Below, piece by piece: positions 11,435-19,789 of a DNA stretch of 64,000 nucleotides. The number at the start of each line of letters is the position of its first letter. Position 1 is the first letter of the stretch. The stretch is from positions 3,315 to 67,314 of the forward strand of contig DASXOF010000133.1 in the NCBI GenBank assembly GCA_036494495.1, in the 5' to 3' direction. Source of the DNA: Solirubrobacterales bacterium. Its GTDB lineage: Bacteria > Actinomycetota > Thermoleophilia > Solirubrobacterales > 70-9. The translations under genes and the position numbers were made by a program. Below the pieces are notes generated by a model. That model was not told the origin of the DNA. It searched no databases and was given only the letters and a program-made list of their open reading frames with translations.

Positions 11435-12796
11435 TCAACCTGACTCCGCCGTCACTGCAAGTCGCTCCCCGGCGAGCTCCGGCAGCAGCGGCTGCAGGAC
11501 CCGGTTGGCGGTCAGCCCGAGGCAGCCGAGGTTGGCGAACCCCGGCCCCTGGCTGAGGCCGCCGAGGCCGGGGATGTGAAGTCGCGGCGAGAGGCCGCGC
11601 AGCTCCAGCGCCCGGCCGATCGGGACCTCGGTCCCCGGCGGCGTGTCCCAGACCTGACCGGCCTCGCGCTCGACCACGGCCCGGACCTCGTCGGAGAAGA
11701 GGCTGCGCAGCTGCGCCAGCAGGTCGAAGCCGGTGCAGTTGACGACGTAGTCGAACTCGGCCGCCACCACCCCGCCCGGCGCCTCGTACTCGAGGCTGAG
11801 CGCCTCACCGCTCGCGGCGAGGCCGGCGTGGAGGGCGCGGCCGACCTCGAACGAGGAGTGCCCGTCGCCCGACAGCGAGGCGATCACGCCGGCGTCGAAG
11901 ACGCCGCGGTCGGCGTGCTTGACGAAGTCGCGGCGGGCCTGCTGGTCGAGCCGTTCCCAGCTGACGTCGTCGGGGTCGGCGAAGACCCGGTTCTCGAGGA
12001 AGCTCTCGCCGCGGCTCATCGGCAGGAGCGGCGTGAAGACGGTGAGACTTGCGAGCGGCCGGAAGGCGCGGAGGAAGACGAGGGCGCTGAGGGCGCTCTC
12101 GCCGCCGCCGAGGATCGCGATCTCGACCTCCTCGTCCTCGGCGATGCCGGCGAACTCCGAGCGGCGGCTGTCGCAGTGGAAGAGCCGCGGCGCCGCCGCC
12201 GGGTCGTGCGGCAGGGCGCGGTGGACGCCCGGGCCGGTCAGCAGCAGGGCGCCGCCGACGTGGCGCTCGGGGTCGTCGGGCTGGCCGCGCTCGGTCACCG
12301 CGATCGCCCAACGCTCGGGGTCGTCTTCGATCGTCACCGACTCGACCCGGCCGTGCAGCAGCCGCACCCCCTCGGTTGCGCGCTCGAGCACCCAGCTCAG
12401 ATAGGCGCCGTAGTCGCGGTGGCGGACCGAGGGCGCGCCGGAGTTGACCCAGCCGGCGTACTCGCCGCGTTCGATCGCGTAGCGCTGCCAGCTGAACGGC
12501 AGGAGCGCCGCGTCGATCGCGTCGCCGGCGGCGCCGAACTGCCGGTAGCTGCGGTACGGGAAGCCGACGTCCTTGATCGGCGGGATCGCCAGCGGCTCCT
12601 CGCCGGAGGTCATCCCGTTGCGGCCGAGCCAGGACGCGGCGGGCTCGGTTTTCTCGACGATCGTCAGCGTCAGCTGGCCGAGGCCGAGCCGGTTGACGAC
12701 GTGGACCTTGGCGGCGATCGCCGCCGCCTTGGCGCCGGCGCCGACAATCAGGAGGTCGGCTTCCGGCGGCGCCTCCGTCTGGCTTGCGGTGCTCAT
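11435..12796 (-). CDS. FAD/NAD(P)-binding monooxygenase (lysine/ornithine N-monooxygenase-like, tentative)
   Basis: Two dinucleotide-fold motifs are present (LLIVGAGAKAAA and IAILGGGESALSA). ATG 12796 overlaps the P450 stop (ATGA). Confidence 0.6.
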   Translation of the reverse strand: MSTASQTEAPPEADLLIVGAGAKAAAIAAKVHVVNRLGLGQLTLTIVEKTEPAASWLGRNGMTSGEEPLAIPPIKDVGFPYRSYRQFGAAGDAIDAALLPFSWQRYAIERGEYAGWVNSGAPSVRHRDYGAYLSWVLERATEGVRLLHGRVESVTIEDDPERWAIAVTERGQPDDPERHVGGALLLTGPGVHRALPHDPAAAPRLFHCDSRRSEFAGIAEDEEVEIAILGGGESALSALVFLRAFRPLASLTVFTPLLPMSRGESFLENRVFADPDDVSWERLDQQARRDFVKHADRGVFDAGVIASLSGDGHSSFEVGRALHAGLAASGEALSLEYEAPGGVVAAEFDYVVNCTGFDLLAQLRSLFSDEVRAVVEREAGQVWDTPPGTEVPIGRALELRGLSPRLHIPGLGGLSQGPGFANLGCLGLTANRVLQPLLPELAGERLAVTAESG

Positions 12797-14085
12797 CAGG
12801 CGACCGGTTCGGCGATCACCAGGCCGCGCCTGGCGGGCGCGAAGGAGATCGCGGATTTCTTGATCGCCTCGCCGCGCCGCTCGGCCGGTTCGAGGCGGAC
12901 GCTCGCGAGCACCGTGCGGATCACCCGCTTCATCTCCATTTCCGCGTAGGAGGCGGCGAGGCAGCGGCGGACGCCGCCGCCGAAGGGGATCCAGGTGTAG
13001 GTGCCGGGCGGCGTCGCGAGGAAGCGCTCGGGGAGGAAGCGGAGCGGTTCGGCATAGTTCGCCGGGTCGCGGTGGACGAGGTGGATGCAGGGCGCGACCG
13101 TGGTCCCCGCCGGCAGCTCGCGGCCGGCCAGCCGCAGCGGCGCCAGCAGCCGGCGGACCACCACCGGCACCGGCGGCCGCAGCCGCAGCGTCTCCTTGAT
13201 CACCGCGTCGAGGTAGGCGTCGCCCTCGCCCGCCAGCACCTCCTCGCGGGTCCGGGCGAGCACGTCGGGGTTGCGCAGCAGCCGCTCGAAGGCCCAGGCG
13301 AGGGTGCTCGAGGTCGGGCCGTCGGAGAGCAGCGTCACCAGTTCGTCGCGCAGGTCGCGCTCGCTCATCGGCGAGCCGTCCTCGTAGCGGGCGCGGACCA
13401 GCATCGAGACCACGTCGCGGGGCTCCTCCTCGGGCTCGGCGCGGCGGCGGCGCGCCTCGGCGATCACCGCTTCCTCGACCGGCCGCATCGCCTCCCGGTA
13501 GCCGCGGCTGCGGGTCATCGCGCCGGGGCCGAAGGCGGCGAGCAGGGCGAGGTTGCGGGGGCTGTTGAGCCAGGCGGTGAGGCGGCGCAGGCGCTCGCGC
13601 AGGCCGTCGAGGCGGCGGTTCTCGCCGGAGCCGAAGACCGCCCGCATCACCACCTCCTGGGTGATCTCCTGCATCCGCGGCCAGAGCTCGAACGGCTCCC
13701 CCACCGGCCAGCGCTCGACTTCCTGCCGCGCCACCGTCGCCATCATCTCGGCGTCGGCCTGGACCGCGCCGCCGTGGAAGGAGGGCAGCATCAGCTTGCG
13801 CCGCTGCAGGTGCTCGGGTTCTTCCATCAGCATCACCGAGCGCGGGCCGAGGACCGGCCCCAGCAGCGGGTTGGCGAGGTCGACGCCGACCGCCTCGCCG
13901 GCGGTGAAGACGGCTTTGACGTCGGCCGGGTCGCTGAGGATCACCCAGTCGCCCCAGTGCATGATCCGCAGCGTGAAGGCGTCGCCGTACCGCCTGTGGC
14001 AGCGCTCCAGATAGGGCAGCGGCCGTTGCGTCCAGGCGACCGCCTGCATCGCCCGCGGCAGCCGCGGGCCGGGTGGCATGCTCAC
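12796..14085 (-). CDS. cytochrome P450
   Basis: The heme-thiolate loop is FGGGVRRCLAASYA and the ExxR motif is in KETLRLRPP. GTG 14085 overlaps the upstream stop; the alternative start is ATG 14079. Confidence 0.9.
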   Translation of the reverse strand: MSMPPGPRLPRAMQAVAWTQRPLPYLERCHRRYGDAFTLRIMHWGDWVILSDPADVKAVFTAGEAVGVDLANPLLGPVLGPRSVMLMEEPEHLQRRKLMLPSFHGGAVQADAEMMATVARQEVERWPVGEPFELWPRMQEITQEVVMRAVFGSGENRRLDGLRERLRRLTAWLNSPRNLALLAAFGPGAMTRSRGYREAMRPVEEAVIAEARRRRAEPEEEPRDVVSMLVRARYEDGSPMSERDLRDELVTLLSDGPTSSTLAWAFERLLRNPDVLARTREEVLAGEGDAYLDAVIKETLRLRPPVPVVVRRLLAPLRLAGRELPAGTTVAPCIHLVHRDPANYAEPLRFLPERFLATPPGTYTWIPFGGGVRRCLAASYAEMEMKRVIRTVLASVRLEPAERRGEAIKKSAISFAPARRGLVIAEPVA

Positions 14086-14405
14086 GCCGCCCGCTCCCGG
14101 CCCAGCCGGCGTTCGCGCTCGAGCCGGTCCATCAGCTCGTCCTCGGCCCGGCAGGTGGCGGCGATCAGCAGCTCGAAGAGGTTGGCGGTGAAGTCCGCCG
14201 GCAGCTCGACCGCGGCGCCGCGGTCGAGGTAGCGCCGGCGCACGACCTCGACCCGGTCGGGCTGCATCATCGCGATCTCGTGCTCGCTCTTGTAGACGGC
14301 GACTTCGCGGCAGATCTGGAAGCGCTCGCCGAGCAGGCGGGCGACCTCCTCGTCGATCACGTCGAGGCGGTCGCGGAACGGCTGCAGGCCGCCGGTCTCG
14401 CTCAT
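14082..14405 (-). CDS. AroQ-class chorismate mutase-like protein (candidate 4-amino-4-deoxychorismate mutase)
   Basis: The 107-aa product reads MSETGGLQPFRDRLDVIDEEVARLLGERFQICREVAVYKSEH...QPDRVEVV. ATG 14405 overlaps the upstream stop. Confidence 0.75.
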   Translation of the reverse strand: MSETGGLQPFRDRLDVIDEEVARLLGERFQICREVAVYKSEHEIAMMQPDRVEVVRRRYLDRGAAVELPADFTANLFELLIAATCRAEDELMDRLERERRLGRERAA

Positions 14406-19693: not shown

Positions 19694-19716
19694 CCCCCAA
19701 GGGCTCCGCTCGGAGA

Positions 19717-19789
19717 TGCACCGGCCGGGGCTCGAACCCGGATCTACGGCTTACAACGCCGTCCCTTTAACCGATTAAGGCACCGGTGC
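19717..19789 (-). tRNA. tRNA-Thr (anticodon UGU), 73 nt, CCA not encoded
   Basis: I folded the cloverleaf manually. The acceptor stem is GCACCGG/CCGGTGC and the D arm is CCTT-AATCGGTTA-AAGG. The anticodon arm is ACGGC-GTTGTAA-GCCGT. The T arm is CCGGG-TTCGAGC-CCCGG and the discriminator is A. Confidence 0.8.

Follow-up and report, generated by a model that had tools for sequence, protein, structure and literature searches.

What is a transfer RNA (tRNA) gene doing at the head of a compact biosynthetic operon, directly before the gene for a diverged relative of arginyl-tRNA synthetase (ArgRS)? The locus that raises this question lies on the minus strand of contig DASXOF010000133.1 (C133 in our numbering) of a Solirubrobacterales bacterium (GenBank assembly GCA_036494495.1), a 3.37-Mb metagenome-assembled genome (MAG) that is 95% complete. 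The window, that is, the whole 64,000-nucleotide (nt) stretch analyzed here, has a GC content of approximately 72%, and its protein similarity matches return homologues bearing Solirubrobacterales or Thermoleophilia names. On balance, we think it somewhat probable that the tRNA and the ArgRS-like paralog form a dedicated pair through which a basic amino acid is activated for coupling off the ribosome, within a vertically inherited biosynthetic operon that looks like a so far undescribed, tRNA-dependent pathway to a small molecule.

Organization and Conservation of the Operon

The tRNA gene (19717-19789; 73 nt, anticodon UGU), recognized by ARAGORN and Rfam (65 bits), is followed 23 nt later by the open reading frame (ORF) of the ArgRS-like paralog P0001 (18008-19693; 561 aa), which gives weak matches to ArgRS profiles and has the ArgRS architecture and a HIGH motif; its start is placed at 19693, with an alternative ATG at 19687 where the database copy (P0009, 559 aa) begins. 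Six more minus-strand genes follow, encoding a fused PabA-PabB aminodeoxychorismate (ADC) synthase (P0002; 719 aa; 15852-18011), a GNAT N-acetyltransferase (P0003; 157 aa; 15382-15855), a zinc amidohydrolase of the HDAC/acetylpolyamine-amidohydrolase type (P0004; 327 aa; 14402-15385; Pfam Hist_deacetyl and PDB matches), an AroQ (CM_2) chorismate-mutase-like protein (P0005; 107 aa; 14082-14405), a cytochrome P450 without a close characterized relative (P0006; 429 aa; 12796-14085; Pfam p450), and an NbtG/MbtG-like flavin N-hydroxylase (P0007; 453 aa; 11435-12796; Lys_Orn_oxgnase). The ORF coordinates and the Pfam and NCBIfam domain calls thus bear out the original prediction of a tRNA, a 23-nt gap, and these seven coding sequences. 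The same prediction had adjacent genes overlapping by 4 nt at every junction, which holds for five of them (ATGA at 18008-18011, GTGA at 15852-15855, GTGA at 15382-15385, ATGA at 14402-14405, and GTGA at 14082-14085) but not for the sixth, between the P450 and N-hydroxylase genes at 12796, where the overlap is 1 nt (TGATG). Independent gene calls in relatives (e.g., locus L005) mostly show the same 4-nt overlaps.

Three long MAG contigs (L005-L007), whose ArgRS-like proteins are 70-84% identical, share the full set and order of the eight genes, with tRNA(UGU) just ahead of the ArgRS-like gene and a shared SBP_bac_3/BPD_transp_1/ABC_tran importer upstream. Nine species-representative genomes and 12 genomes of the genus yielded 17 further loci with upstream DNA, and the tRNA is present in all of them; a scan of Joint Genome Institute (JGI) metagenomes added 80 loci at 56-86% identity, and every one of these that reaches far enough has the order tRNA, ArgRS-like, PabAB, GNAT, HDAC, AroQ, P450, N-hydroxylase. 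Overall, this order recurs in approximately 100 related loci, wherever the locus is long enough. With the order kept in the three MAG contigs and the 80 metagenome loci, the genes constitute a syntenic and tightly coupled operon, as proposed, and not a chance adjacency.

The operon is a genus-wide, vertically kept trait and not a sporadic cluster. The ArgRS-like paralog is present in 23 of the 24 sampled species of the window's GTDB genus. At E ≤ 1e-60, neither 17 genomes from the family's remaining genera nor approximately 180 further genomes of the class gave a match to it. A search of 400 other Actinomycetota genomes with a profile of the wider family was also negative; because only three candidates were scored per genome, we read its status across the phylum as rare, not absent. 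In one closed genome of the genus, the ArgRS-like gene matches as four pieces in different frames (G208:C1:1284069-1285777), reflecting either a pseudogene or long-read indel errors.

The Operon tRNA

Two tRNAs with a UGU anticodon are encoded in the genome. The copy on contig C167 is built like the threonine isoacceptors with GGU and CGU anticodons, having U73, a TAGCTCA D arm, and a GCC acceptor, and a tRNA-Thr(UGU) of this type is present in 38 of 41 genus genomes, single-contig ones included, so the operon copy is an extra gene. In the latter, the acceptor reads GCACCGG, the D stem CCTT/AAGG, and the 4-nt variable loop AGAU; the C10-G25 pair is reversed, positions 32 and 73 are G and A, and no CCA is encoded. 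The earlier label "tRNA-Thr" is therefore misleading, given that the acceptor, D arm, and discriminator all differ from those of the genome's threonine isoacceptors; a role as the housekeeping tRNA-Thr(UGU) was rejected on this dissimilarity to all three isoacceptors, on the presence of a normal UGU tRNA elsewhere, and on the variation of the anticodon.

The association of this RNA with the synthetase-like gene is nearly without exception: the tRNA stands directly upstream in 21 of 21 genome loci and 20-45 nt upstream in 79 of 80 metagenome loci, the remaining one starting 92 nt before the gene. The 103 operon copies comprise 25 distinct sequences, in which the cloverleaf is 98.9% paired and nine pairs show compensatory change, values reached by none of 500 shuffles and lost when the alignment is slid; pair 6-67, for example, is seen as A-U, U-A, G-C, C-G, and U-G. 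No variation is seen in acceptor bases 1-5, in U34 (alignment column 35), or in the T loop, and little or none in the D arm. The cloverleaf, T loop, U33, and A37 are those of a normal tRNA, with C33 in one copy. In 12 loci (ArgRS-like proteins 55-58% identical), UAA replaces UGU, the gene order being the same as far as the loci reach (seven extend to the N-hydroxylase). This UAA tRNA is 73 nt long and lacks the long arm of a real tRNA-Leu, which argues that the operon tRNA is not a spare isoacceptor.

Two observations on other tRNAs of the genome were made in passing. The 3' half of the housekeeping tRNA-Thr(UGU) gene (C167:1976-2050) recurs as an exact 44-nt repeat at 10120-10163, 8 kb downstream (locus L030), on a contig whose GC content is 66.7% (genome, approximately 72%), as if an element had integrated into the tRNA-Thr gene. 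On contig C117, an atypical 75-nt tRNA called "Ser(ACU)" (C117:26570-26644; L141:8571-8645) has an AGAT variable loop and no long variable arm, and lies approximately 1.1 kb upstream of a class II synthetase gene of the Asp/Lys/Asn type (L141:9793-11169), with which it may form a second private tRNA/synthetase pair.

The ArgRS-like Paralog

As originally proposed, the first gene of the operon encodes a true paralog. The canonical argS lies on another contig and scores 417.9 bits in the genome search in which P0001 scores 85 bits, and P0001 falls far below the ArgRS equivalog cut-off (TIGR00456, 84.5 bits against 261.65; PF00750, 25 bits); a housekeeping ArgRS function was rejected on these grounds. 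Sequence matches to ArgRS structures in the PDB are weak and cover the catalytic core only (E 1e-9 to 1iq0 and 1bs2), with identities to solved ArgRS structures of 13-18%. An AlphaFold2 model of P0001 was built on a 44-member family alignment (pLDDT 90.1), and a Foldseek search with this model placed ArgRS best (TMq 0.64-0.71 over approximately 570 columns), led by the yeast ArgRS-tRNA-Arg complex 1f7u (TMq 0.71, 569 columns) and including the tRNA complexes 2zue and 5b63, with CysRS, MshC, and MetRS structures ranking far behind; an Atlas structure search gave TM values of 0.79-0.81 to ArgRS clusters. Because these matches span complete ArgRS structures, the N-terminal, catalytic, and anticodon-binding domains are all kept. 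In ArgRS, the N-terminal and anticodon-binding domains hold the D loop and the anticodon arm of the tRNA.

Across the family, H124, G126, and H127 (the HIGH motif) and S397, at the degenerate KMSKS position, are invariant, and K121, the "HIGH-loop lysine" of Thermus- and yeast-type ArgRS, is nearly so. When aligned with hhalign to the genome's own ArgRS, P0001 carries an invariant G345-x-E347-W348 in place of G-S-D-H-H; the G-[AS]-D-H-H motif belongs to the arginine pocket and contacts the guanidinium group. Because the HIGH residues, K121, and S397 are kept and the G-S-D-H-H motif is replaced, the adenylation machinery looks intact and the side-chain pocket looks rebuilt around an acidic and an aromatic residue.

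A Wider Family and Its tRNA-like Partners

An exhaustive HMMER search returned 193 cluster representatives at E ≤ 1e-30, most of them 30-49% identical over their full length. Their gene contexts are varied. P0131 (locus L032; 49% identical to P0001) and P0133 (48%) are accompanied by HDAC and N-hydroxylase genes, and P0138 (L033; 37%) by an N-hydroxylase gene. P0134 (43%) occurs with genes for a phosphopantetheinyl transferase (PPTase), an adenylation-carrier protein, a guanidinoacetate-methyltransferase-like protein, and a GNAT, and P0144 (L138; 39%) with methyltransferase and ATP-grasp genes. P0142 (L034; 37%) stands behind a LeuRS-like gene; P0148 (L035; 38%) belongs to a set of MetRS-like, GNAT, and ArgRS-like genes with a haem-oxygenase-like diiron protein encoded opposite; and P0141 (L136; 42%) comes from a locus with two divergent ArgRS-like genes, methyltransferases, and an Orn/DAP/Arg decarboxylase. 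The genome studied here itself has a second paralog on contig C169 (L031:8650-10296; 36% identical), set among genes for the alpha and beta subunits of lysine 5,6-aminomutase and a truncated LeuRS-like gene (L031:6682-13045); second paralogs like this one were seen in at least three other genomes of the genus (G203, G207, and G210). A basic-amino-acid theme runs through these contexts, in the form of the lysine 5,6-aminomutase, the Orn/DAP/Arg decarboxylase, and the guanidinoacetate-methyltransferase-like gene.

Several of these loci also have an RNA partner. A homologous tRNA lies 270 nt upstream of the L032 ArgRS-like gene in divergent orientation (GCACCAG acceptor, 4-nt variable loop, A73, anticodon UAG, C37), and in L138 a tRNA with the same acceptor and T arm and the anticodon UCU lies 26 nt upstream. 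A covariance model further detected degenerate elements beside the genes in L031, L034, L035, and L137 (E 3e-8 to 6e-6), which we call only tRNA-like because the model is not specific at low scores; that of L031 has a UCU loop and is antisense (L031:10318-10394), in the 105-nt gap before the aminomutase. No such element was detected in L136, nor in L033, where only 1 kb of upstream DNA is available. In L137, a lower-GC soil contig, the tRNA-like 3' part (L137:76-135, minus strand) and a segment resembling a 5' acceptor and D arm (approximately 270-297, minus strand) lie approximately 130 nt apart and may represent an interrupted tRNA. In L033, a 66-codon ORF with a hydrophobic C-terminal half (L033:817-1017) overlaps the distant ArgRS-like gene by 4 nt (ATGA), with the N-hydroxylase gene next; it may encode a small membrane protein or a scaffold peptide.

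The three proteins of L032 are 46-49% identical to those of the window, and the ancestral core likely comprised the tRNA, the ArgRS-like protein, the HDAC, and the N-hydroxylase. Because relatives share the ArgRS-like protein, the HDAC, and the lysine-type N-hydroxylase, PabAB and AroQ look like accessory components and not the heart of the pathway. The PabAB-GNAT and AroQ-P450 pairs are found only in the version of the window's genus, having either joined the core there or been lost from the relatives.

Chorismate, Acetyl, and Oxidation Enzymes

P0002 combines GATase and chorismate-binding domains and passes the TIGR00553 (pabB) equivalog cut-off (365.7 bits against 328.4), so its assignment as an ADC synthase stands. 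Three other chorismate-binding genes are present in the genome, of which the copy on contig C143 has two Aminotran_4 genes close by and probably represents, with them, the pabB and pabC of folate synthesis. With this gene in place, and with sister genera lacking the operon, a role for PabAB in folate supply was rejected.

P0005 matches CM_2 with 62.6 bits and lies under all curated NCBIfam cut-offs, with weak matches to both mutases and PchB lyases (TIGR01803, 49.2 bits, cut-off 73.35; isochorismate lyase, E 3.9e-07). The genome encodes no other AroQ (CM_2) protein, and a function of P0005 as the housekeeping chorismate mutase was rejected, that enzyme being of the AroH type. P0005 keeps R11, R28, and K39 (E. 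coli mutase numbering) and resembles PchB lyases in the segment after K39. It may thus be either an ADC mutase, leading to p-aminophenylpyruvate and p-aminophenylalanine, or an ADC lyase, leading to p-aminobenzoate. The original prediction saw here the first half of the p-aminophenylalanine route. Its ADC synthase is sound; because the AroQ protein is assignable neither to the PapB mutases nor to the PchB lyases, the route itself is only one option.

The final enzyme, originally described as a two-Rossmann flavin monooxygenase, is indeed a flavoprotein, and the label can be refined to NbtG-like: P0007 matches the L-lysine N6-monooxygenase NbtG (PDB 4d7e) over residues 14-436 with E 1.8e-60, and it probably hydroxylates N6 of lysine. 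The best PDB matches of P0004 are acetylpolyamine amidohydrolases (APAH; E 7e-28), and the HDAC catalytic motifs can be recognized by eye (GHHA, DLDLHYPNGT for DxDxH, GYD, and EGGY); the GNAT P0003 retains the CoA-binding RGIGA motif. With these motifs kept, the two proteins form a plausible acetylating and deacetylating pair, consistent with the N-acetyl intermediate that had been suggested. The P450 is functionally uninformative, its PDB matches being distant (CYP51- and CYP4-like, E approximately 1e-27) and its best NCBIfam model, ApyO, reaching 146 bits against a cut-off of 525.

Genomic Setting and Expression

A promoter-like site conserved among relatives lies approximately 55 nt upstream of the tRNA (19843-19870, minus strand), composed of a -35 element TTGCGT (19865-19870), a 16-nt spacer, and a TGn-extended -10 element TATGCT (19843-19848). 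The pair aligns across 10 related operon loci (TTGACG, TTGGCG, or TTGCGT, 16-17 nt, TGn-TATGCT). A scan of 9300-20300 for strict consensus promoters listed no promoter-like site, the 19843-19870 pair included, and the terminator-like matches in the same interval are all on the plus strand and not meaningful for a minus-strand operon. Because the conserved pair precedes the tRNA, the tRNA is the putative first transcribed element. Between the two (19790-19842), a CGACCAATCAG-like motif and a CATAGCC directly before the tRNA are conserved across operon loci, perhaps as an operator or as a signal for processing. In one soil metatranscriptome, contigs at 85-91% identity, and hence from relatives, cover eight operon pieces and span the N-hydroxylase/P450 and P450/AroQ junctions; DNA carry-over is possible, and we take these contigs as a weak hint that the operon is expressed in relatives. 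Most of the window is contained in one DNA sequencing run only, probably the source sample, and each of the remaining listed runs holds less than one fifth of the sampled words, from which no claim on habitat or expression level is drawn.

On either side of the operon lie conserved neighbors. The gene for a PQQ-type beta-propeller lipoprotein (P0008; 9850-11415, minus strand) starts 19 nt after the operon with GGAGGA ahead of its start, confirming the spacing and the strong Shine-Dalgarno sequence reported for it; its membership of the pathway is uncertain, and in the relative L032 the lipoprotein gene is 6 kb distant with housekeeping genes between. Usp, TetR, and RDD genes occupy the 3' side of the lipoprotein gene, the universal stress protein at 9360-9839 (plus strand) and the TetR-family regulator at 8713-9306 (minus strand); both also follow the operon in L005, Usp alone in L007, and neither in L006. 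Upstream, an importer of the ABC type for polar amino acids (20029-22612, minus strand) consists of an ATPase (20029-20778), a permease (20775-21617), and a probable binding protein upstream of these, its link to the pathway being putative. Domain scans of the operon and adjoining genes found no PapC, nonribosomal peptide synthetase (NRPS), polyketide synthase (PKS), or ATP-grasp gene, in agreement with the original prediction. Despite the N-hydroxylase and the GNAT, no hydroxamate siderophore genes (IucA/IucC, NRPS, or Peripla_BP_2) were found in the operon or its neighbors, and the adjoining ABC system is of the polar-amino-acid and not the siderophore type.

A Proposed Role for the tRNA-Synthetase Pair

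We infer a charging reaction, a substrate, an acceptor, and a product as follows. The tRNA would be transcribed first, from the conserved putative promoter, and presumably excised from the transcript. Class I ArgRS enzymes require tRNA for amino-acid activation, and the paralog may likewise use the operon tRNA as both cofactor and acceptor, esterifying a basic amino acid or a derivative onto it. Lysine or N6-hydroxylysine would be the leading candidate, because the partner enzyme is NbtG-like and the family contexts involve basic amino acids. The aminoacyl-tRNA ester could then serve as an activated donor or carrier for non-ribosomal coupling. The nucleophile could be a hydroxylamine, by analogy with the chemistry of hydrazine synthetase and valanimycin, or an arylamine derived from PabAB and AroQ. 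The latter two would supply a p-amino aromatic compound, namely 4-amino-4-deoxyprephenate or p-aminophenylpyruvate if P0005 is a mutase and p-aminobenzoate if it is a PchB-like lyase; acetylation by the GNAT and deacetylation by the HDAC would provide protection, and the P450 oxidative tailoring. The original prediction had left the amino acid to be condensed with or without tRNA, and the choice now resolves towards "with" because a dedicated, extra tRNA travels with the synthetase family.

A broader and more tentative proposal, which we consider possible yet rather less than probable, is that ArgRS-like paralogs, together with tRNA-like RNAs that co-evolve with them, make up a general and so far unrecognized two-component platform, in which a private tRNA carries a non-proteinogenic basic amino acid off the ribosome; in a more extreme form, the product might even be inserted at rare sense codons. 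The tRNA-borne amino acid would perhaps be tailored in place (N-hydroxylated, deacetylated, and coupled to a p-amino aromatic), and the platform would be a tRNA-templated counterpart of carrier-protein biosynthesis.

Several points weigh against our reading of the tRNA and the paralog as a dedicated activating pair. No aminoacyl-tRNA-using transferase can be recognized among the operon's Pfam and NCBIfam domain calls, and the GNAT P0003 resembles an ordinary acetyl-CoA enzyme. MshC and the MetRS-like domain of hydrazine synthetases work without tRNA. Ordinary tRNAs, too, reach 45-70 bits with the family RNA model, tRNA-Lys(UUU) being highest at 70.6. The UGU anticodon is constant throughout its large clade while the stems change; something selects on it, and the carrier model alone does not account for this. 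Only five fixed positions distinguish the UAA-clade synthetases from those of the UGU clade, and they are scattered instead of gathering in the anticodon-binding domain, so that anticodon positions 35-36 may not be read by the enzyme; co-evolution of anticodon and enzyme was examined through these same differences and set aside as uninformative. Finally, what we name as amino acid, acceptor, and product is guesswork.

Does the enzyme, then, need this tRNA at all? It is possible, though unlikely, that the paralog, in the manner of MshC or the MetRS-like domain of hydrazine synthetases, is an amide or ester ligase independent of tRNA, and that the tRNA is a co-transcribed extra or an element for 5'-end processing or stability, comparable to the tRNA genes that precede E. 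coli tufB. Tallying with this, tRNA-free precedents are known, MshC structures are among the fold matches, a transferase family dependent on aminoacyl-tRNA is missing from the domain calls as noted above, and the spacing of 23-29 nt between tRNA and start codon would yield a processed mRNA 5' end. A MetRS-like protein, a cupin, and a lysine N6-monooxygenase were predicted from gene context in 2010 to form one system (PMC2922099), now known as hydrazine synthetase; Pfam found no match to the cupin family in any of the eight proteins P0001-P0008. The paralog nevertheless keeps the whole tRNA-binding architecture of ArgRS, unlike MshC, and its tRNA is additional to the normal tRNA-Thr(UGU). Moreover, the tRNA or tRNA-like partner is on the same strand upstream in the operon, divergent in L032, and antisense downstream in L031, a variation in position and orientation that argues against a purely cis-acting leader. 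Resistance copies of aminoacyl-tRNA synthetase genes in biosynthetic clusters are a known theme, and P0001 might by analogy protect the cell from an ArgRS-targeting antibiotic made by the neighboring genes. We find this hardly credible for a protein so distant from solved ArgRS structures and so far under the argS cut-off, with its arginine-pocket motif replaced and a partner tRNA lacking the ArgRS identity elements A20 and C35.

The succession of tRNA, synthetase, and biosynthetic genes is also the layout of a code-expansion or ambiguous-decoding cassette like pylTSBCD, in which the paralog would load a non-canonical amino acid made by the operon, such as a derivative of p-aminophenylalanine or N-hydroxylysine, on the tRNA for insertion at rare A-ending sense codons (ACA, or UUA in the sister clade). 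The normal features of the tRNA, its invariant anticodon in the large UGU clade, and the rates of ACA, CUA, and UUA (0.75, 0.70, and 0.18 per 1000, among the rarest codons) fit such a cassette. However, the pairing with rare A-ending codons is automatic because U34 is invariant in a genome of 72% GC; U34 would read the common ACG too (15.8 per 1000), the canonical tRNA-Thr(UGU) competes for ACA, and the anticodon loop changes to UAA in the sister clade, to UAG with C37 and to UCU in relatives, and to C33 in one copy. In 136 orthologue pairs drawn from the window's genome and 400 kb of a closed genome of the genus, 37 of 56 ACA positions aligned to threonine, the same rate as the ACT control (95 of 144). 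By this sequence comparison ACA is an ordinary threonine codon with no signal of reassignment, rare or site-specific insertion being outside the test's reach; reassignment of ACA was accordingly rejected, and we judge a code-expansion cassette very improbable. Retention of the operon by 23 of 24 species, which is housekeeping-like, the resemblance of the second paralog and its lysine 5,6-aminomutase neighbor to the EpmA/EpmB pairing, and the conserved lipoprotein and importer genes nearby would all suit a module that modifies a macromolecule (a protein, an envelope component, or an RNA), in the manner of EpmA/EpmB, Fem transferases, or GluQRS. Such a function is decidedly unlikely in our view: no gene for a target, a transferase, or envelope synthesis is linked, the PabAB, AroQ, P450, GNAT, and N-hydroxylase enzymes are typical of small-molecule tailoring, and other family members occur with PPTase, adenylation-carrier, methyltransferase, and ATP-grasp genes. 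Activation of a basic amino acid on the dedicated tRNA remains our preferred reading.

Relation to Known Systems

In its logic, the hydrazine synthetase system is the closest analogue. It too strictly couples a lysine-type flavin N-hydroxylase to a class I synthetase paralog in small biosynthetic operons (e.g., Spb38/Spb40, Tri26/Tri28), and acetyl or other protecting chemistry is often nearby, as in the operon. The paralog of the present operon differs in being derived from ArgRS and not MetRS, in keeping its tRNA-binding domains, and in having a dedicated tRNA. MshC offers another parallel from the Actinomycetota, being a CysRS-derived class I synthetase paralog of mycothiol synthesis that was recruited to join an amino acid (cysteine) to a non-tRNA acceptor and acts alongside a deacetylase (MshB) and a GNAT (MshD). 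It is shorter, however (chains of approximately 400-413 residues), and needs no tRNA, whereas the operon enzyme has a tRNA partner that co-evolves with it; the MshB deacetylase, moreover, has an LmbE fold, and that of the operon an HDAC fold.

The pylTSBCD and selenocysteine systems share with the operon a special, atypical tRNA, a dedicated enzyme, and genes for amino-acid biosynthesis. Unlike in these systems, the operon's anticodon reads a sense codon that behaves as threonine and differs between clades, a normal isoacceptor coexists, and the synthetase is of class I and ArgRS-derived. The pairing of a chorismate-utilizing MST enzyme with a small AroQ-fold enzyme recalls PapA/PapB/PapC, CmlB/CmlD, and PchA/PchB, although, in contrast to PapABC, no PapC-type dehydrogenase is encoded in the operon or by its immediate neighbors; a housekeeping TyrA could substitute for it. 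VlmL/VlmA, SbzA, PacB, cyclodipeptide synthases, and PEARLs use the tRNA ester as an activated amino acid outside translation, and the valanimycin system has an extra synthetase and an N-hydroxylase, as does the operon. To our knowledge, these aminoacyl-tRNA-dependent enzymes of natural-product pathways draw on ordinary cellular tRNAs only, whereas the operon encodes its own divergent tRNA with an anticodon that shifts between clades.

Searches of the literature for ArgRS-like paralogs, for dedicated tRNAs encoded in clusters, for clusters of the Solirubrobacterales, and for this combination of genes gave no description of such a system, and the ArgRS-like family is not mentioned in a paper on tRNA-deacylase mining or in a review of aminoacyl-tRNA-dependent enzymes. 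Within the literature searched, the gene set thus seems undescribed, in keeping with the original prediction.

Implications

The system could belong to the biosynthetic pathways that rely on synthetase paralogs or aminoacyl-tRNA, and could be a new kind among them if the tRNA proves to be a carrier; we know of no synthetase paralog or aminoacyl-tRNA-dependent enzyme that does other than borrow an ordinary tRNA or dispense with tRNA. It also raises the question of whether an ArgRS-derived enzyme working outside translation retains the tRNA requirement for activation. If the proposed role is correct, orthogonal tRNA/synthetase pairs would arise naturally for non-translational chemistry, an odd tRNA adjoining a synthetase-like gene would be a handle for genome mining, and the family would offer candidate orthogonal pairs for genetic-code engineering. 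For the organisms themselves, it would point to a metabolite kept by nearly all sampled members of a widespread, uncultured soil genus of the Solirubrobacterales.

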